From NCBI GenBank assembly GCA_963762565.1, contig CAVXLD010000001.1, positions 1,088,001-1,152,000 of the forward strand: a stretch of 64,000 bases of DNA. The letters are read 5' to 3'. The position numbers were made by a program, and so were the translations under genes. Under the pieces are notes generated by a model. It saw only the letters and a list, made by a program, of their open reading frames with translations. It had not been told where the DNA came from and ran no database searches. Below are positions 41,250-51,405 of the stretch, piece by piece; the first letter of the stretch is position 1, and each line of letters begins with the position of its first letter. Origin of the DNA: an uncultured Verrucomicrobiae bacterium. Its GTDB lineage: Bacteria; Verrucomicrobiota; Verrucomicrobiia; Chthoniobacterales; JAFAMB01.

Positions 41250-43919
41250 TCATTCACTTCTCTGCCTCGCAGCATCGGCGATATCACGAGCCACGAGCGC
41301 GGTCCAGCCGGTCTGGTGGCTTGCGCCTAGACCTCGACCGGTCTCGCCGTGGAAATATTCGTGAAAGAGGACAAGTTCGCGCCAATGCGGATCAGCTGCG
41401 AATCGGAGATCGTCTCCGTGACACGGGCGCCGTCCTGCGGCATCCGGCAGAAAAATACTCGCCAACCGCGCACCAAGTTCGTTCACGACTCCTTGAAGAT
41501 TCATCATACGACCCGAACCAGTAGGACATTCCACCTGCAACTTATCGCCGTAAAAATGGTGGTACCGCTCCAGTGCCTCGATCAGCAAATGGTTGACAGG
41601 AAACCAAATCGGTCCGCGCCAATTCGAGTTGCCGCCGAAGAGGTGAGTGCGGGATTCGCCGGGATCATAGTCGACGCGATGCTCTACGCCTTCCGCTATA
41701 AAGACGCACGGACTTTTCTCGTGGAACTTCGATAGGGACCGGATTCCATAAGGCGAGAGAAACTCACTCTCGTCGAGCATATAACTCAGCAGGCGCTGCA
41801 AACGCTCGCGCGCCGGAATCGCCAGTAGAAATCGTTGACTGTCGCCGTGCTCGTAAAAGCTGATATTGTGAGCAAGATCGGGACGGTGGTTTATGAACCA
41901 GGCCGCCCGTTTGTAGAAACCTGGAAGTTTCTTGATTGTTTCCCCCTCCAGGACTTCGGTCGCGATCAATGGCAACAGTCCGACCAGGGAGCGTGTCTTG
42001 AGTGGGATGGCGCTCTGATCGGTCCGCAGCTGGTCGTAGTAAAAGCCGTCCTCTTCGCTCCAAAGCCCGCTGCCGCCGAGTTGGTTCATCGCATCTGCGA
42101 TCTGGACGAAGTGCTCGAGAAACTTCGATGCCATGTCCTCATAGGCCCGATAAATACGCAGTCCTTCGCCAACCGCCAGCTCCAGCGCCATCGAAAGCAT
42201 TGTGGCGCAGTAAAACGCCATCCAGGCGGTGCCATCGGCCTGCCGGAGGACGGCTCCGTTTGGCAAGACCTGAGAGCGATCGAACACGCCGATGTTATCC
42301 AACCCAAGGAAGCCGCCCGAAAACAGGTTCTCACCGTTCGCATCCTTACGGTTCACCCACCATGTGAAATTGAGCAGCAGTTTCTGAAAGACGCTTTCGA
42401 GAAAGTCGCGGTCCCGTGCGCCCCGCTCGCCCGAGATTTTATAGACGCGCCAGGCGGCCCAGGCATGCACTGGTGGGTTCACGTCCCCAAAGGCAAACTC
42501 GTACGCCGGAATCTGGCCGTTCGGATGCATGTACCATTCCCGCAACAGTAGAATCAATTGCTCCTTGGCGAACTCTGGGTCGATATGAGCCAGCGGGATC
42601 ATGTGGAATCCAAGGTCCCATGCGGCGAACCATGGATACTCCCACTTGTCCGGCATCGAAATGATGTCGCGGCTATAAAAATGACTCCAAGCTTTGTTGC
42701 GGCCCTGCAGCCGACCGGTGGGCGGCGCCGGACCGGACGGATCGCCGCTAAGCCAATCCTGAACGATGTAGTGATAGAATTGTTTGCTCCAGAGCAGCCC
42801 TGCGGCGGCTTGGCGTACCACGCCCTGCTCGATACTGTTAAACTTTATCCTGTACAGAGAGCCGTAGTACTCATCAGCCTCACGCATGCGTTCGGCGAAC
42901 ACCGCGTCAGAGTCCGGAGCCTTCGTCGAAGCCTCCTGCTCATTGAAAAGCCGCAAGGAGATGGTTTGCGTGGAATAGGATGGGATGCGCAAAACATAGT
43001 GGAGAGCTGCCTTCGTGCCGGTCTTTGCTGGATTGACGGCGCCGTCCTTACCGTGAATAACGTAGTCGTGAAATGCGTCCTTAAAAAACGCGTGGTCGGG
43101 CCCGAGATTGTACAAGCGGCGCGTGTTCGTGTCATTCTCTGTAAAGAGCGCAAGCGGACGGGGAGAATCCGGGGTCGTCCCGCTATCGAGCAGATAATGG
43201 CCGAGCGATTCATGATGGAGCGAGAGACTGTCGGCGCCTGCCCACGTAATCCTCGGTTTAGTGGCACTGCGTTCATCGATCGCGCCCCATGACCAAGTGT
43301 TGCGAAACCAGACGGTCGGTAGCAGGTGAAGCGTCGCTGCCTCGGCGCCGCGATTGGCCGCAGTGAGGCGGATCAGGATGTCGTTAGGCCCGTTTTTTGC
43401 ATACTCGGCCGTGATATCGAAATAACGACTGTCGTCGAATACGCCGGTATCCAAAATCTCGAATTCAGGATCGTCTTTGCCCCGGCGTCGATTCTCCGCC
43501 ACCAGCTGCGCGTATGGGTACTCGGCCTGCGGATATTTATAAAGCGCCTTCATGTAGGAGTAAGTCGGCGTCGCGTCGAGATAGAAGTATTGCTCCTTCA
43601 CATCCTCTCCATGATTCCCTTCCGGACCCGTCAAGCCGAAGAGGCGCTCTTTCAGAATCGGATCCTTGCCATTCCACAACGCCAATGCGAAGCAAAGCCG
43701 GCATTGACGATCGGCGATGCCGAGCAGTCCGTCTTCCCCCCATCGGTAGGACCGGCTTCGAGCATGATCGTGCGGGAAGTAATCCCAACAACCGCCGTCT
43801 GGGGAGTAGTCTTCGCGCACCGTGGCCCACTGGCGCTCCGATAGATAAGGTCCCCAACGTTTCCAGTTTGCCTCACGCTGCGCATCGGCTGTAAGACGCG
43901 CCTTCTCGGCATTGCTCAT
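41250..43919 (-). CDS. MGH1-like / GH63-type glucosidase
   Basis: WKRWGPYLSERQW, MPDKWEYPWFAAWDL, GGFLGLDNIG, GLGASHQTGWT; start trimmed to ATG 43919. Confidence 0.92.
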   Translation of the reverse strand: MSNAEKARLTADAQREANWKRWGPYLSERQWATVREDYSPDGGCWDYFPHDHARSRSYRWGEDGLLGIADRQCRLCFALALWNGKDPILKERLFGLTGPEGNHGEDVKEQYFYLDATPTYSYMKALYKYPQAEYPYAQLVAENRRRGKDDPEFEILDTGVFDDSRYFDITAEYAKNGPNDILIRLTAANRGAEAATLHLLPTVWFRNTWSWGAIDERSATKPRITWAGADSLSLHHESLGHYLLDSGTTPDSPRPLALFTENDTNTRRLYNLGPDHAFFKDAFHDYVIHGKDGAVNPAKTGTKAALHYVLRIPSYSTQTISLRLFNEQEASTKAPDSDAVFAERMREADEYYGSLYRIKFNSIEQGVVRQAAAGLLWSKQFYHYIVQDWLSGDPSGPAPPTGRLQGRNKAWSHFYSRDIISMPDKWEYPWFAAWDLGFHMIPLAHIDPEFAKEQLILLLREWYMHPNGQIPAYEFAFGDVNPPVHAWAAWRVYKISGERGARDRDFLESVFQKLLLNFTWWVNRKDANGENLFSGGFLGLDNIGVFDRSQVLPNGAVLRQADGTAWMAFYCATMLSMALELAVGEGLRIYRAYEDMASKFLEHFVQIADAMNQLGGSGLWSEEDGFYYDQLRTDQSAIPLKTRSLVGLLPLIATEVLEGETIKKLPGFYKRAAWFINHRPDLAHNISFYEHGDSQRFLLAIPARERLQRLLSYMLDESEFLSPYGIRSLSKFHEKSPCVFIAEGVEHRVDYDPGESRTHLFGGNSNWRGPIWFPVNHLLIEALERYHHFYGDKLQVECPTGSGRMMNLQGVVNELGARLASIFLPDAAGRRPCHGDDLRFAADPHWRELVLFHEYFHGETGRGLGASHQTGWTALVARDIADAARQRSE

Positions 43920-43977
43920 GCCGGTGTCAAACTCCCCTTCACCGCGAGTGCCCATCATGTAACGCGTGCGATACTGG

Positions 43978-45174
43978 TCACGCCGTTGTCGAGAAACCGC
44001 CTCGTCTTCCAACTTGCCCAGCGGCGGCACCGTTACCAACACCAGCACTCCGCTGCCCCAAGATCTGCTGACCATGCGCTTCGGCCCGCGCGAACACGAC
44101 TTTGTACACCTGGCAATAAGGATCCTTGGCTAACAGCGTTCCCTTCGCGCTGTAAGTTCGCACAGGACATCCGCCGTGGCAGATCGATAGGTAGCGGCAG
44201 GCCAGGCAGTCTTCATGCTCCATTAGATGCTTCGGCCGCTCCACGAAATCCTGCCGCGCTCGACTGGTTTTTAGCATCCGCGTAAGGTCGGGTTCGCGGA
44301 ACATATTACCAAAGAAGTATTCGGGATAGCTGGTAACCCAGCAATCGCACTGAGCAACCGTCCCTCTGGCGTCCACTGAGATAAATTGATTGGAGCAGTT
44401 CTCTTTCCAGATACAGGGTAAACGTGCCGGTCGGCCGACGAAGTGATCAATCAAGGCATCGAACGGACCCAGCGATACACCAGCGTCGTAGCCTTTCTGT
44501 ATCCAGATATCAAAGAGCTCACCGAGAAACCGGGCCAGTTCACCATTATCGAGTTGAAAGCCGCCTTCGACATCTTTCGCCGGGCCACCGGCAAACGGGG
44601 TATTCACCTGGAAATCATCGAGACCAAGGTCCTCGGTGAAGTACCGATAGAACCTCTCCGCGCCGGCTTCCAGACTGGCTTTATGGAGTACGGCAATGAC
44701 CCCGATCTTGATGCCTGCTTCGCGTGCTTCGTGCAGCCTTTTAGTCCAAAGTTTAGTGTAAGCTTCCGCACCGCTCTTGATAAGCTTCCGATGGACATTG
44801 GGATAGTCCATCGACGTTCCGACGGATCCGTTAAACATCCCATGGATTACCCTATTCCACGATGGTGAATAGCTAATAAGATTCGTTTGTAGATAGTGAA
44901 CGAATTTGCGTCCTTTCTCCGCGGCAGCGCGTCCCATAAGATTTCCAGCGTCTGCAAACCAGTCGGGACCCATAATCATCGCTTCTCCGCCCTGCCAATA
45001 GATCTCGCAAACTTCGATATTCTCATGTTCGAGATGGTCAAGCAGTCGCCGAGTTAACAACGGGAGCAACGCCGGTGAAAGTCGATGCGGTTCCTTGTGC
45101 TCAAAGCAGTAATCGCAGGCGACGTTGCACTCTGACGTCGGTAGGAGGATCACGCTGAAGACTCGTCCGTTCAT
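43978..45174 (-). CDS. radical SAM/SPASM-domain peptide maturase (anSME-like; candidate cyclophane synthase)
   Basis: CNVACDYC, WQGGE, LQTN; SPASM cysteines CIWKENC...QCDC...CLACRYLSICHGGCP...YC. Confidence 0.93.
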   Translation of the reverse strand: MNGRVFSVILLPTSECNVACDYCFEHKEPHRLSPALLPLLTRRLLDHLEHENIEVCEIYWQGGEAMIMGPDWFADAGNLMGRAAAEKGRKFVHYLQTNLISYSPSWNRVIHGMFNGSVGTSMDYPNVHRKLIKSGAEAYTKLWTKRLHEAREAGIKIGVIAVLHKASLEAGAERFYRYFTEDLGLDDFQVNTPFAGGPAKDVEGGFQLDNGELARFLGELFDIWIQKGYDAGVSLGPFDALIDHFVGRPARLPCIWKENCSNQFISVDARGTVAQCDCWVTSYPEYFFGNMFREPDLTRMLKTSRARQDFVERPKHLMEHEDCLACRYLSICHGGCPVRTYSAKGTLLAKDPYCQVYKVVFARAEAHGQQILGQRSAGVGNGAAAGQVGRRGGFSTTA

Positions 45175-45189
45175 CAGTAGGGACTCCGG

Positions 45190-46104
45190 TTATTCTACGG
45201 GCGACGCCAGGGGTCCAACCTTCGCCAGCTCCTCTGTTTGATCAGCACGATCTCGGTTGGCAAGCTCGTGACCCATCTCATCGGCAGCAGCCTTTATGGC
45301 GAAGAACAACTGTTTGACTCCTCCGCAATCGTAAGCGGGATCCGGCCACTTGAAGTATCCTTGGCAGATCTCTTGGAAAGGACAAGTCACACACTCGGCG
45401 TCTTGCTCCAGTAGGCGTCTAAACCAAGCCTCCACAAAAGTCGTGGACGAGAGATCCGATGACGGAGAACTGAAGCCGCCGGGTAATTCAAAGCCGACGC
45501 CCACTCCTCGACGCAGAAATAAAGCTGGGTCTTCTTCAAGAATCATCCAGAGCGAACCGTCGCCGGTGCCGCACATGGCAGCCAACACCGAATGGAAGAA
45601 CTCTACCGGCGCTTCCACCATCGGATCACGAAGGTAGAAGGTTACCGCCTCGGTCAATTCAATTAGTACTTCAGGAGATGGTTGCCCCGGCAGTAATCGC
45701 ACCGGCAGTCGCAATGCGATAGCCACCTTGACGGCTCTAAGAAACCCGGGCGAGGCAGGCATACTCACCCTGACGTCACGGACGGCAAAGACGTCGACCA
45801 GTCGATACAAATCGGAAAACTGCGAACCGGGATCCGTAATGAGGACATCCAGAGGAACATTCGATGTGCTTTGCGCCGCCGGGATCCAAGCATCCTGATC
45901 GCTGAGCAACTCCTCTACTTGGATCCATTGTAAGCTAGCCGGGGCATTACTAAGCCATTGGCTAAGTTCAGCCCGGCTCCTGACGATGGCGACAAATGGG
46001 CTCCCACCGTGGCCGGACGCTAAATCGGACCGCAAGAAAAGAATGGGCCAATCGGGTTCTAGCGGCGCGCTATTGTACCCATCATTTACCAGCGGTTGAT
46101 CCAT
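45190..46104 (-). CDS. hypothetical protein with SPASM-like Cys-rich C-terminus
   Basis: CVTCPFQEICQGYF...YDC; no CxxxCxxC; sits between precursor and rSAM genes; start uncertain. Confidence 0.75.
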   Translation of the reverse strand: MDQPLVNDGYNSAPLEPDWPILFLRSDLASGHGGSPFVAIVRSRAELSQWLSNAPASLQWIQVEELLSDQDAWIPAAQSTSNVPLDVLITDPGSQFSDLYRLVDVFAVRDVRVSMPASPGFLRAVKVAIALRLPVRLLPGQPSPEVLIELTEAVTFYLRDPMVEAPVEFFHSVLAAMCGTGDGSLWMILEEDPALFLRRGVGVGFELPGGFSSPSSDLSSTTFVEAWFRRLLEQDAECVTCPFQEICQGYFKWPDPAYDCGGVKQLFFAIKAAADEMGHELANRDRADQTEELAKVGPLASPVE

Positions 46105-46433
46105 GAACCTCCGCCGCCATAGTACCGGCGGTTAATCCAGCCGCCACCACCCCCGCCGCGACCATTCAACCAGCCACCACCGCCACCCCAGCCTCCCCGG
46201 CCGTTGATCCAGCCGCCGACGCCCCCGCCAGCTCGCCGATTCACCCAGGCGCCAGCCTGAGCCGCCGGTGGAGATGCCAGCCAAGCGCCGCCGATTATTG
46301 CCGCCGCAATTGCGGCCCCTGACCATTTGCCCAGGCTTTGTAGAAACCACCGGCGTCCGAGCAGTTCCTGATTGTCACCTGAGCCGGTTGTTCCAGCAGA
46401 GTGCTCACTTTTCATAACCGTAAAATCGGCCAT
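46086..46433 (-). CDS. putative RiPP precursor: Tat signal plus Gly-rich core with five W-x-N motifs
   Basis: GRRWFLQ twin-Arg motif, hydrophobic helix, AQA site; core contains WVN, WIN, WLN, WIN, WIN. Confidence 0.85.
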   Translation of the reverse strand: MADFTVMKSEHSAGTTGSGDNQELLGRRWFLQSLGKWSGAAIAAAIIGGAWLASPPAAQAGAWVNRRAGGGVGGWINGRGGWGGGGGWLNGRGGGGGGWINRRYYGGGGSWINRW

Positions 46434-46436
46434 TTG

Positions 46437-46931
46437 TTAGGCGTCTTCCTTGCCCGTTGCCCCTGTCAACGTTGAGAAATGCATGGCAGCGATCCGCCAT
46501 TTGCCGGCCTCTTTTGCGACGGTAAGGGATAGGTTGATGGGGTAGGTGAACTCTTTCCCAGCCTTTTCGCCCGAGATATTTCCGGACGTCATCAGCCAAC
46601 CCATGTCAGTGCCAACCGCCGCTATTTTGAATTGGTATTCGTACTTTTGTTTTCCCTCGTCGAAACCCTGGAAGAAGTGCTGATAAGCAACTTTGATCTC
46701 ATCCGGACCGGACCAGATCTCTCCGGGACCGGTTCCCATGATAGCGGCCTTTTCAGTCAGGCATGCCATAACCCCCTCGAGGTTATGGTTAGTGAAGGCT
46801 TCATCGTGCGCCTTTAATAAAGCGCGAATCGGCTCTATCTCTGGATTTTCGGATGTCTCCGCATTCACTGCGGTAGGCAGCGTGGCAGCAATGCTAACGA
46901 CCCCGGCGATAATTGCTTCTCTTCGGTTCAT
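46437..46931 (-). CDS. Tat-signal NTF2/SnoaL-like protein
   Basis: MNRREAII signal with VNA site; IRALL...AF...NLEGVM; C-terminal KEAGKWRIAAMHFS. Confidence 0.85.
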   Translation of the reverse strand: MNRREAIIAGVVSIAATLPTAVNAETSENPEIEPIRALLKAHDEAFTNHNLEGVMACLTEKAAIMGTGPGEIWSGPDEIKVAYQHFFQGFDEGKQKYEYQFKIAAVGTDMGWLMTSGNISGEKAGKEFTYPINLSLTVAKEAGKWRIAAMHFSTLTGATGKEDA

Positions 46932-47821: not shown

Positions 47822-48046
47822 ATGGACAAAGACGTAGAACACTTAAAGCTACTCTCGATTTTCTATTATATCGTGGGCGGGCTGGCCTGCTTTTGTGGAC
47901 TGTTATGGATACTATATATCGTATCCGGCGTCATTCTGGTAGTCGCGTCGGGATCTATGGCAAGTGACGATCGCATGGGAGCATCTATCGGCGGCGTCGC
48001 GGCCGCTATCGTCGGTCGTCTTGCGACTCTAGCGTGCGGTAGTTGA
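47822..48046 (+). pseudogene. probable truncated membrane protein
   Basis: EHLKLLSIFYYIVGGL N-terminus, ends within the second TM. Confidence 0.45.
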
Positions 48047-48174
48047 CTACCTGGCATTCTTTGTTCCGGCTGCCGGAACTATTGTCTAGATGGCGTCGCC
48101 GAGCTTCCGCGATCCGACGAACAATGTTGTCGTTCCTCGCACCAGGCATATCAGAACACAACTTCCGGCACTGC

Positions 48175-49080
48175 GCAGTCACCGATCTAATGGAACCGGA
48201 TCGCATTGTGATTGGATCGAACAGCCAGCGGGCGTTAGCGATTATGGAAAAGGTTTACGCGCCGTTTTCGGCGCCAATTATGGTGACGGATGTCAAGAGC
48301 GCTGAGTTGATAAAGCATGCGGCCAACTCGTTTCTTGCGCTCAAAATTTCTTATATCAACGCGGTGTCCGCAATTTGTGAGACCACTGGAGCAGATATTG
48401 AACAGGTCGCAGAAGGGATTGGGGCGGACAAACGAATCGGAAGGAGCTTTTTCAGCGCCGGTCTGGGATATGGAGGGTCTTGCTTTCCGAAGGACCTTGC
48501 CGCCTTCATTGCCATCAGCGAACAAATTGGCGAACCCTTCCAGCTCCTGCGCGAGGTCCAGAGAATAAACCGCCAGCAGCGCGAACGCTTCGTAAAGAGA
48601 TTACGCGACACTTTGTGGGTGTTAAAAGAGAAGCGAATCGCAGTTTGGGGTCTTACCTTTAAACCACATACCGACGACGTTCGCAGTTCGGTGGCCGTCG
48701 ATCTGGTAAACGATCTTATTCGGGAAGGCGCCCTCGTGACCGCCTACGACCCAAAAGGCAACCAAAAGGTTCAAGAGCTCAATCTTTGTCCAGGAGTTCA
48801 TCTGGCCAAGTCCGCGCTCGAGGCTGTGCAGGATGCTGAAGCATTAGTCTTAGCAACGGAATGGCCCGAGTTCAGTGAAGCGGATCTCACAGAGGTATAT
48901 CAGCGGATGCATATGCCAATCGTTTTCGACGGAAGGAATCTATTCGATCCGGCTACCATGCGAGATCTCGGTTTCCAATACTTCGGCATCGGGCGTCCGT
49001 TGGACGACCCCGGCGACAGTAACCGGAATAGTAACGGCACAAGCACGCGTGGCGACCTCGTTGCCCTCCGCTCTAACTGA
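48175..49080 (+). pseudogene. ugd: UDP-glucose/GDP-mannose dehydrogenase, 5'-truncated
   Basis: PDRIVIG, SAELIKHAANSFLA.KIS, GYGGSCFPKD, GLTFKPHTDD present; N-terminal GxGYVG Rossmann half absent. Confidence 0.85.
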
Positions 49081-49792: not shown

Positions 49793-51405
49793 GGGGCTGT
49801 TGCCCAATAGCGCCTAATTAGTATGAGGATTTTGGGTTAGTAATTGGAAGGTTTGGCGAAGGGTTAGCTTGGCAAGAAGGAGGTTGAAATCGGGTGAAGG
49901 AGCCGGGTGAGCCAGCGGAGCAACTGAGTAAGGCGATAGGCTAGCGCAGGGTTGGTTTGGGAGAGATGCCTGAGGAGTTTTCTCAGGTTCTGTACCGTAG
50001 CAATGAGTAAGTCTTGGATAGCTTGCTTCCAAAGTCCACGCCAACGAGAACGCTTGAGCCCATGACGATTGGCGGCGTCGGCAAAGCTCCTTTCCATGAG
50101 ATGTTGGCGGCGTTTAAGGTCGGCTTTAGCAGCCTTGGAGTTAGCAATTTTGCGAGCCTTTTCTAACCAGGCTTGATCCCGATGGCGGTGAATGGTGCGT
50201 CCGGTGCGGGAACGAGTGCACAAGGCGCGCAGCTTGCACACTAAACAGGTCCCCTTGGCGGTGACATATTCCCAGGTCAAGCGCTTGGGGTGTAAGCGCC
50301 TGGCTTTCATGATCTGCTTGGCGGGACAGAGATAGGTATTAGTCTGTGCATCGTATCTAAAATGCTCGTCGGAATAAATGCCCTCGCTTCGTCCCTTACC
50401 TCGGATCGACTCCCCCAGCAGCTTCACATGGGCTTTAATCCCCGCTTTTTGACAGCTAATCAGGTTGCTGACGCTGCCGTAACGCGCATCAGCAATCACA
50501 GTTCGCACTGCTTGATCGGTAGTATCTTCATGAGCTTCAATGAGCCTCAACAGTTGCGAGGCTTCGTCGACCGCACCGGTGGTGGTCTCTACGGCGGTGA
50601 TGATCTCATGGGCATCGTCGACTACTCGATGAGTCTTATAGCGTAAGCGGCTCTTTAGGCCGGCGTGTCGAACTAGAGTCGCATCCGGGTCGGTCGTACT
50701 GCGGAACTGGCGATTGGTTTTGGAGTATTGGCCAATGGCAGAACCGCCGCTGCCGCTGTCCCCTGATGGCGGATCTTGGTCTTGGTCGGGTTCATCGAGC
50801 TTTTGCACTTGCTCTTTGGCAGTTTGCTCGATGGCATTGAGCGTCTCCGCAGACAGGGGCTTAACTGAACCCAGATTGGCATCGGCCTCCACTAGGCTCG
50901 CATCCACGTGGATCTTACGGCCTTCTACCAGACCAGCCTCCACGCACTGCTGCACTACCCGGCTAAATAGCGAGACAAACACTTCTTTACCCCAGCGCTT
51001 GCGCGCCTTGCTCAACACACTGTGGTCGGGAATCTGATCGTCTAGCCCATAGCCAAGAAACCAAAGGTAATCCAGCCGTTCAGGGATGATGCGCATCAGC
51101 TCCCGCTCGCTCTTGATATCATCCAAGAATAACAACAACATCATCCGGACAATCACTTCGGGCGGAACCGACTTGTTGCCTCTTCGCCCATAAGTGTGCG
51201 CTACCTCCTTACGCACAAAACTCAAATCTAACGCCGCCCTGATCCGCCGCAGTGGATGATCGTCCCGCACCCGCTTATCTAAATTGACCCGATAGCTCCA
51301 GATCGGAACCTGCGAGTCTTCTTCGTCCATCATGGGAACAATACACTATCAAATCTGTAACCAGCAAAGCAATACTATAATGGTTATTAATTGGGCAACA
51401 CGCCC
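49793..51405 (-). mobile_element. IS1182-family insertion sequence, copy 2 (inverted)
   Basis: Same length, ends and translations as copy 1; flanks TATA and TTGA do not match each other. Confidence 0.92.
49864..51333 (-). CDS. IS1182-family DDE transposase
   Basis: Protein identical to 24353-25822. Confidence 0.92.
   Translation of the reverse strand: MMDEEDSQVPIWSYRVNLDKRVRDDHPLRRIRAALDLSFVRKEVAHTYGRRGNKSVPPEVIVRMMLLLFLDDIKSERELMRIIPERLDYLWFLGYGLDDQIPDHSVLSKARKRWGKEVFVSLFSRVVQQCVEAGLVEGRKIHVDASLVEADANLGSVKPLSAETLNAIEQTAKEQVQKLDEPDQDQDPPSGDSGSGGSAIGQYSKTNRQFRSTTDPDATLVRHAGLKSRLRYKTHRVVDDAHEIITAVETTTGAVDEASQLLRLIEAHEDTTDQAVRTVIADARYGSVSNLISCQKAGIKAHVKLLGESIRGKGRSEGIYSDEHFRYDAQTNTYLCPAKQIMKARRLHPKRLTWEYVTAKGTCLVCKLRALCTRSRTGRTIHRHRDQAWLEKARKIANSKAAKADLKRRQHLMERSFADAANRHGLKRSRWRGLWKQAIQDLLIATVQNLRKLLRHLSQTNPALAYRLTQLLRWLTRLLHPISTSFLPS

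Follow-up and report, generated by a model that had tools for sequence, protein, structure and literature searches.

Radical S-adenosylmethionine (SAM) peptide maturases are a major source of new natural products made of cross-linked peptides, and most of them are assumed to act either on their own or together with a small RRE domain, a recognition element of pathways for peptides that are made by ribosomes and modified after translation (RiPPs). A two-protein arrangement is described for the thuricin CD sactisynthase TrnC/TrnD, in which, according to PMC12093266, two radical SAM proteins form a tight complex and only the radical chemistry of TrnC is essential. The same source presents TrnD as having a truncated SPASM domain, with CX2CX5C plus one further conserved cysteine and a single auxiliary cluster; TrnD mainly contacts the leader in an AF3 (AlphaFold 3) model, and its own radical SAM cluster is dispensable. 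Here we compare with such systems a gene from a 64,000-nucleotide stretch, hereafter the window, of an uncultured Verrucomicrobiae bacterium (contig CAVXLD010000001.1, positions 1,088,001 to 1,152,000). Its product, a pseudo-radical-SAM/SPASM protein of 304 residues (45190..46104, minus strand; recognized from the list of open reading frames (ORFs), fold, conservation and profile comparison), lies between a candidate precursor peptide gene and the gene of an active radical-SAM/SPASM maturase. The evidence supports the view that this protein, which we call the partner, descends from radical-SAM/SPASM peptide maturases as a degenerate paralogue that has kept the partial barrel and a SPASM-like C-terminal domain.

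The partner ORF carries ECVTCPFQEICQGYFKWPDPAYDCGG at residues 238-260. Four of its five cysteines (C178, C238, C241, C247 and C260) make up the motif C238-x2-C241-x5-C247-x12-C260 (45325..45393, minus strand), which is invariant in 107 sequences and presumably provides a single [4Fe-4S] site of the auxiliary cluster II (Aux II) type. In the alignment of 107 relatives, whose mean column identity is 24%, these four positions and W186 (45547..45549, minus strand; located in LW-x-I-x-E-E-D-P by alignment and profile comparison) are the only invariant columns, while G249, F251, K252 and P254 are conserved in at least 90% of the rows and no cysteine is conserved before residue 238. The family consensus reads C-x2-C-x5-C-x-G-[YF]-F-K-x-P...C. 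CxxCx5C occupies the same position in 100 of the 103 cluster representatives of 240-345 residues; among the three that lack it (P0184, P0231 and P0235), P0184 and P0231 align only with the N-terminal part of the query. Since the motif is strictly conserved among relatives, we regard it as beyond chance. CxxxCxxC, the motif of the SAM-binding cluster, is absent from the partner and from all 103 of these representatives. Elsewhere in the protein, the polar stretches P-V-E-F-F-H-S and LW-x-I-Q-E-E-D-P are nearly invariant across the family, and the N-terminal half of the barrel is weakly conserved, the consensus consisting mostly of x up to about residue 95. Compared with the seven-cysteine SPASM motif (CX9-15GX4C...CX2CX5CX3C...C), the partner is incomplete, as only CX2CX5C and the final cysteine occur. 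The first-pair and x3C positions are devoid of cysteine: W186 lies near the first of them, and the F/Y of C-x-G-[YF]-F replaces x3C.

An AlphaFold2 model, computed with the family alignment as input, reached a mean predicted local distance difference test score (pLDDT) of 91.0 and a predicted template modeling score (pTM) of 0.86. It contains six beta-alpha units, with strands at residues 21-25, 37-41, 58-64, 85-88, 111-116 and 135-138, and thus the partial (beta/alpha)6 TIM-barrel core of the radical SAM superfamily. Beyond the barrel comes a small hairpin region; the cysteines are surrounded by short helices, and a long helix forms the C-terminal end. When the model was compared with the PDB by Foldseek, ranks 1-10 were all taken by chains of ChlB (9gm3, 9gmc) and anSMEcpe (4k36-4k39), with E-values from 1.4e-5 to 1.2e-3 and template modeling scores of about 0.5. 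In a separate all-against-all structural alignment covering 48,161 chains, ChlB (9gm3) was the top match (Z 13.0; root mean square deviation 3.8; model 17-281 aligned to chain 5-375 over 253 residues), and anSMEcpe (4k36) matched with Z 11.9 over 250 residues. Further matches were TigE (Z 10.7), CteB (Z 10.5), SuiB (Z 8.7), PqqE (Z 8.4) and SkfB (Z 8.1); the first four of this ranking are without exception radical-SAM/SPASM maturases of RiPPs or proteins. TIM barrels of a generic kind and de novo barrels reached Z 6-9, over the N-terminal 200 residues only; because they cover no more than this part, the match to radical-SAM/SPASM proteins stands above background and spans both the barrel and the C-terminal domain. 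The references of PMC12912966 cite ChlB under the description 'multiple cyclophane synthase'.

Profile comparison links the partner to its neighbor in sequence as well. Aligned by hhalign with 30 orthologues of the maturase, the partner family gave a probability of 74.6% and an E-value of 2.6e-5 over 169 columns, with partner residues 98-283 placed on maturase residues 174-377; against the single maturase sequence the E-value was 1.2e-4. The alignment pairs C238, C241, C247 and C260 of the partner with C323, C326, C332 and C354 of the maturase, and sets W186 about where the first cysteine of the maturase's auxiliary cluster I (Aux I), C254, lies. In anSMEcpe, as given in PMC5715301, the Aux II ligands are C317, C320, C326 and C348 (CX2CX5C and the last cysteine) and the Aux I ligands are C255, C261, C276 and C330. 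Together, these ligand sets and the pairing indicate that the partner keeps exactly the Aux II ligands, whose cluster lies near the surface in anSME-type enzymes, and no Aux I ligands. With both the SAM-cleaving CxxxCxxC and the Aux I cysteines lost, the partner therefore cannot perform radical chemistry by itself.

The original prediction, made from the sequence, had pictured an N-terminal part of alternating beta and alpha segments and a SPASM-like CxxC-x5-C tail that parallels the neighboring enzyme and lacks a SAM-cluster motif. These features were all borne out: six strands alternate with helices in the AlphaFold2 model, the four cysteines are present and in register with those of the neighbor (hhalign E 2.6e-5), and CxxxCxxC is missing. 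It had further made its case dependent on a related fold and on conserved cysteines. Over residues 17-281 the best structural matches are radical-SAM/SPASM peptide maturases rather than proteins of an unrelated fold, and the four cysteines are invariant and aligned with the neighbor's CX2CX5C...C.

On the other hand, domain models hardly recognize the family. The partner itself matched 0 Pfam and 0 NCBIfam families at E <= 0.1, and a sequence profile search of the PDB gave nothing significant, the best hit being a mandelate racemase barrel at E 0.064. The radical SAM model PF04055 did not match the partner, nor was it among the matches listed (25 of 36 families) when the 107 members were compared with Pfam at E <= 1; among these listed matches, each family was hit by a single member. 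TIGR04085 (SPASM) was matched weakly by 16 of the 107 members (best E 0.034), the partner not being one of them, and other weak NCBIfam matches included HxsC in 15 members and AhbC in six. Besides, the ESM Atlas neighbors comprised one cluster automatically named radical SAM and another with SPASM in 17% of its members. A word-indexed search with the partner yielded 796 proteins at E <= 0.001 among 3318 candidates, and the best 120 of these 796 were all unnamed or 'hypothetical', with no precomputed Pfam domain. With phmmer, run exhaustively over 1.84 billion cluster representatives, 303 were obtained at E <= 0.001, of which 211 reached <= 1e-10 and 65 reached <= 1e-30, the clusters being defined at 50% identity; the source of the family is mostly soil Verrucomicrobiota. 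The family profile, run against 400 other genomes of the phylum, found only a stretch of 37-61 positions around CxxCx5C, in ten ORFs, nine of which also contain CxxxCxxC. Though weaker, this result, the weak NCBIfam matches and the ESM Atlas neighbors are in line with the sequence link to the maturase. Of note, C-x2-C-x5-C-G-G-N-F-R-A-R occurs in many radical SAM proteins of other Verrucomicrobiota (L027-L036), whose tails have an aromatic residue at the SPASM x3C position, as the partner does; they may represent a broader group of tails with a single auxiliary cluster in which the CX2CX5C half is retained.

The partner gene belongs to a compact cassette. Four ORFs on the minus strand follow one another in the order SnoaL-like protein, precursor, partner and maturase; the precursor stop and the partner start overlap by 19 nt, and the partner stop lies 15 nt before the maturase start. 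We collected 25 partner loci from a scan of one genome per species and searched their surroundings by tblastn with the proteins of the window. Lineages of Verrucomicrobiota account for the labels of 21 loci, the other four being labeled Dormiibacterota, Armatimonadetes, Acidobacteriota and 'bacterium'. The maturase gene lies directly downstream of the partner in 24/25 loci, and the remaining locus (L021) ends inside the partner gene, at the contig end. Upstream, the precursor was detected in 22 and the SnoaL-like gene in 21 of the 25 loci. When ORFs were clustered over all 25, only the four cassette families recurred, apart from antisense shadow ORFs, and no dedicated protease or transporter was found to recur across them, which fits export by the twin-arginine translocation (Tat) pathway and cleavage at A-x-A. 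A query with the distant relative P0204 retrieved one further locus from metagenome contigs, the soil contig L037, which has the same gene order with a partner of 35% identity, a SnoaL-like gene and a precursor with W-V-N repeats. Among 43 genomes of the window's own family, 23 contain the partner and 24 the maturase, and the two genes adjoin in 23/23; in the additional maturase-bearing genome (G413) the match is partial (query residues 89-374). Homologues of the partner apart from a radical SAM neighbor would have weakened the original prediction; in the 24 loci and 23 family genomes just mentioned, the maturase accompanies it.

One genome of the same family, G402 (C11:754582-756397), has a partner and a maturase that are both interrupted by TGA stops or split; as the maturase is broken along with the partner, this cassette appears to have decayed as a unit. 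The window's genome holds one copy of the partner, and in a 401-genome sample of the phylum it alone gave a full-length match. The cassette is thus common in one family and rare elsewhere, and it is gained or lost as a unit. Relative to L001, the ratio of nonsynonymous to synonymous substitution rates (dN/dS) was 0.23 for the partner, 0.034 for the maturase and 0.15 for the SnoaL-like gene; finite values were obtained in 3/12 pairs for the partner and 2/12 for the maturase, since dS was saturated in most, and only L001 had a dS below 1. The partner is under purifying selection and less constrained than the maturase. At the protein level, the partners of the Verrucomicrobiota loci L001-L022 are 50-65% identical and the maturases 71-86%, and in the three most distant loci the values are 34-39% and about 52%, respectively.

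Fusion proteins offer a further view of the domain. Six long relatives, taken from the 150 best that were listed, were examined. In P0187, P0242 and P0268 the partner domain is N-terminal to a radical SAM domain with CxxxCxxC, for which HxsC4, NirJ, AhbD and MoaA-like families are the best NCBIfam matches, and in P0198 a HemN-like radical SAM domain precedes the partner domain. DUF483 (PF04467) is fused to this domain in P0228 and P0246, and P0246 has in addition a class I methyltransferase with weak similarity to ApyS, a methyltransferase of RiPPs (E 2.6e-7). The occurrence of one domain with three unrelated enzyme types is what would be expected of a substrate-handling module and fits an electron relay to a single enzyme less well. 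As a side aspect, the fusions in P0228 and P0246 hint that DUF483 belongs to peptide modification. An AlphaFold2 model of P0242 (588 residues, 36-row alignment) showed a confident partner half of the same fold, a segment at 266-312 with pLDDT < 50 and a mediocre radical SAM half, with an overall pTM of 0.54; because the alignment of the radical SAM half comprised 3 rows, we do not read a domain interface from it. Prediction of the three-chain complex of maturase, precursor and partner gave scores of 0.89, 0.87 and 0.87, compared with 0.00 twice when the partner was replaced and 0.71 when an unrelated protein took the place of the maturase. This falls short of the mark of 0.20 above every control, and the score may stem from the chain that was kept, so that we count the prediction neither as support nor as counter-evidence.

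The other products of the cassette bear on the possible role of the partner. The maturase (398 residues; 43978..45174, minus strand; assigned by CxxxCxxC, the SPASM cysteine set and NCBIfam matches) carries CNVACDYC at residues 16-23 and CLACRYLSICHGGC...DPYC. Its SPASM set is complete (C254, C260-x10-G-x4-C276, C278, C323-x2-C326-x5-C332-x3-C336...C354), and all cysteines of CxxxCxxC and SPASM are invariant in 30 orthologues. The best NCBIfam matches are anSME, DynA, DarW, DarE, GrrM/OscB, YhhB, AmcB, XyeB and FxsB, all under the family cut-offs; the cyclophane synthase models among them (GrrM/OscB, YhhB, AmcB, XyeB and FxsB) score 56-74 bits compared with cut-offs of 310-450, and anSME and DynA score better.

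The precursor (115 residues; 46086..46433, minus strand; delineated from the ORF list and the alignment) combines a twin-arginine signal with five Gly-rich W-[VIL]-N repeats. Its signal reads RRWFLQSLGKWSG...AQA, and the twin-arginine segment ...GRRWFLQSLGKWSGAAIAAAIIGGAWLASPPAAQA precedes the repeats. In nine aligned precursors R28, F30, L31, G35, K36, W37 and S38 are invariant, as are the W and N of every repeat; the GKWSG segment (G35-S38) stays invariant even among precursors of only 51% identity. In 8/9 of these precursors the core closes with W-[IV]-N-R-[WRF], that of L037 with W-V-N-R-R-G-W. Such conservation of the signal seems to exceed what a plain Tat signal would need, and the same sequence may serve for both export and leader recognition. 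For triceptides, PMC12912966 describes an aromatic-X2-X3 motif, and the five invariant W-x-N triplets fit this pattern.

Against this background, we consider it probable that the partner acts as a TrnD-like, non-catalytic subunit, predicted to hold one [4Fe-4S] cluster, which presents the precursor to the maturase, a proposal that draws on analogy. The partner with its single cluster would bind the precursor, the bound leader probably being the conserved RR-x-FL-x3-GKWSG segment that is also the Tat signal, and would dock on the maturase such that the W-x-N core is presented. The maturase would then cross-link each aromatic-x-Asn (W-x-N) triplet, and the modified peptide would leave by the Tat pathway, losing its signal at A-x-A. 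A more far-reaching version, possible but doubtful, treats the whole family as a portable recognition module derived from a dead radical-SAM/SPASM scaffold, which would deliver the leader to a paired or fused enzyme in the manner of an RRE, be this an anSME-like, HxsC/NirJ-like or HemN-like radical SAM protein or a methyltransferase, and, in the present cassette, would also serve as a proofreading Tat chaperone, holding the precursor back from the translocase until all W-x-N triplets are cross-linked. If true, this would be the first RiPP pathway whose export signal is the recognition sequence.

Several observations speak against presentation of the precursor by the partner. Sequence homology with the maturase extends only over the C-terminal two thirds, the N-terminal barrel being linked by fold alone, and the four cysteines could bind Zn instead of an iron-sulfur (Fe-S) cluster. 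The maturase resembles enzymes such as ChlB, where, to judge from the title of PDB entry 9gm3, the leader is bound by the enzyme itself, so that the need for an additional subunit to bind the leader is not obvious. Besides, nonsynonymous change in the partner is about 2.5x faster than in the maturase, P-V-E-F-F-H-S, I-Q-E-E-D-P and K252 could equally form a catalytic site of unknown kind, and in two loci with full upstream flanks (L020 and L023) tblastn found neither a SnoaL nor a precursor match beside the partner-maturase pair. Concerning these two loci, L023 is labeled Armatimonadetes and has a partner of 34% identity, and in both the substrate may lie elsewhere or differ.

The retention of exactly the Aux II ligand set would also suit a different role, the main competing reading, in which the Aux II-type [4Fe-4S] cluster of the partner shuttled electrons between the maturase's clusters and a reductant or acceptor of the cell; this would speed repeated turnovers for five or more cross-links per peptide, with peptide binding being secondary. 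Aux II has been proposed as a route to the protein surface (PMC5715301), and re-activation of PapB after each turnover needs intermolecular electron transfer, likely via the second auxiliary cluster (PMC10470005). However, the maturase possesses complete Aux I and Aux II sites of its own, a ferredoxin-like function would not need the whole 230-residue barrel that has been conserved, and in two of the six fusions the domain is combined with DUF483 and, in one of them, a methyltransferase, for which no electron supply is expected. We hold such a relay to be rather unlikely, and it is mainly because of the fusions with unrelated enzyme types that we rank presentation of the precursor above it.

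A catalytic role might be read from the nearly invariant polar residues in P-V-E-F-F-H-S and LW-x-I-Q-E-E-D-P: with its barrel and one Fe-S cluster, the partner could carry out a second, SAM-independent modification of the precursor (e.g. at Asn, Arg or Gly), or the cluster could act as a Lewis acid. TIM-barrel-like folds are a common catalytic scaffold, and many barrel enzymes match the model at Z 6-7. Yet no Pfam or NCBIfam enzyme family was matched, the closest folds are all radical SAM maturases whose catalytic apparatus the partner is missing, and the N-terminal half of the barrel is poorly conserved, which makes an enzyme distinctly unlikely in our eyes. As to a functionless, decaying duplicate or a purely structural, Zn-binding remnant, the faster evolution of the partner relative to the maturase and the broken copy in G402 would be in line with it, but the maturase of G402 is broken too, the partner's dN/dS is 0.23, the 303 clusters at 50% identity have invariant cysteines, loci are labeled beyond Verrucomicrobiota and the domain is retained in fusions; we hold either to be highly improbable. 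Taken together, fold, profile, conservation, linkage, co-loss and fusions uphold the initial suggestion of a dead radical SAM paralogue or predicted Fe-S accessory, with presentation of the precursor as its preferred function.

Further features of the locus deserve mention. The SnoaL-like protein (164 residues; 46437..46931, minus strand; Pfam SnoaL_3, E 1.1e-13), a SnoaL-like/DUF4440 protein, has an RR-containing N-terminal signal sequence of its own, MNRREAIIAG...VNA, and its role in the periplasm may be to bind the peptide after export or to process it further. In one soil metatranscriptome run (X19), contigs fell on the SnoaL gene and the precursor, on the initial 340 nt of the partner (45762-46124) and on parts of the maturase gene; they match at 90-100% likeness, stretches without coverage carry no weight, and the RNA library may contain DNA, so this is no proof of transcription. 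Downstream, a 941-residue ORF resembling GH63 and mannosylglycerate hydrolases (41250-44075, minus strand) would overlap the 3' end of the maturase gene by about 98 nt if it started at 44075, and its true start probably lies further downstream. It was ruled out as a cassette member, as tblastn matched it in 0/25 loci. On the other side of the cassette, an ORF for a UDP-glucose/GDP-mannose dehydrogenase (48043-49080, plus strand) encodes only the central and C-terminal domains, the central one starting at residue 85; the N-terminal NAD-binding domain is apparently missing. At a distance of about 0.8 kb there is a gene for a DDE transposase (DDE_Tnp_1_6, DUF772; 49864-51333, minus strand), and the ORF was possibly truncated by insertion.

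A conserved partner descended from an enzyme would show a duplicated enzyme turning into a dedicated helper subunit, here with two of three clusters stripped and with re-use by fusion to three other enzyme types. In practical terms, attempts to express cassettes of soil Verrucomicrobiota for Gly-rich Trp-x-Asn peptides should include the partner gene, and the family merits its own hidden Markov model, so that genome miners stop labeling its members hypothetical. A leader within a Tat signal also raises the question of the order of modification and export. Literature searches, with most subscription journals outside their coverage, returned no description of the partner family, nothing, among the papers listed, on pseudo-radical-SAM proteins by that name or as 'pseudo radical SAM', only unrelated work, among the papers listed, for GrrM/OscB and GrrA/OscA, and nothing that joins twin-arginine signals with precursor peptides of radical SAM RiPPs.

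How, then, does the partner relate to known systems? Its proposed handling of a leader that is also a Tat signal resembles the tasks of RREs and of Tat-signal chaperones, which is a functional analogy only: PqqD-like RREs and the Tat-signal chaperones TorD, DmsD and NapD have folds unrelated to that of the partner, and it had no Pfam match to RRE or Tat-chaperone families. Of the same kind as the partner are the families that NCBIfam names 'pseudo-SAM/SPASM' (TIGR04347) and 'non-iron pseudo-SAM PsgB' (TIGR04419), radical-SAM-derived and cluster-less like the partner, which is set apart from them in that it matches neither model. To these we would add TIGR04150, which we take to be the pseudo-radical-SAM protein of GG-Bacteroidales, TIGR04193, presumably GwsS, and TIGR04321 as further cluster-less relatives. 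None of the five models was among the 25 NCBIfam families matched by the 107 members at E <= 1, and TIGR04347 and TIGR04419 were present by name in the release searched. We know of no biochemical test of these cluster-less families. As the partner family matches none of the pseudo-SAM models searched, it is uncatalogued; cluster-less radical SAM relatives in peptide cassettes are already a known category, of which it is a variant rather than a new principle. What sets it apart is that its cysteines are those of Aux II only, that its cassette pairs it with a SnoaL-like protein and a W-x-N precursor bearing a Tat signal, and that it occurs in fusions.

With ChlB and anSMEcpe the partner has the whole-length fold and the CX2CX5C...C register in common; it is about 70-95 residues shorter, has 9-13% sequence identity with them and, unlike them, has neither CxxxCxxC nor the CX9-15GX4C pair nor the cysteine of x3C. 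Like a Twitch domain, which according to PMC5715301 has a single auxiliary cluster and no CX2CX5CX3C motif, the partner would have one (predicted) auxiliary cluster instead of two. It is, however, the reverse of Twitch and falls outside that definition, since CX2CX5C and the last cysteine are kept while the upstream cysteines are gone. Finally, by the published description of TrnD, it and the partner both adopt the radical SAM fold, are encoded beside a catalytic radical SAM enzyme and have CX2CX5C plus one more cysteine, a likeness by description and not by sequence comparison. TrnD keeps CxxxCxxC and cleaves SAM, whereas the partner has none of the cysteines of the radical SAM cluster, and the TrnD system forms a thioether, whereas the partner's cassette is presumed to form C-C cyclophanes. 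By this analogy, the partner looks like the next step beyond TrnD, with the SAM cluster gone altogether, and would be the end point of a path on which TrnD appears half way.

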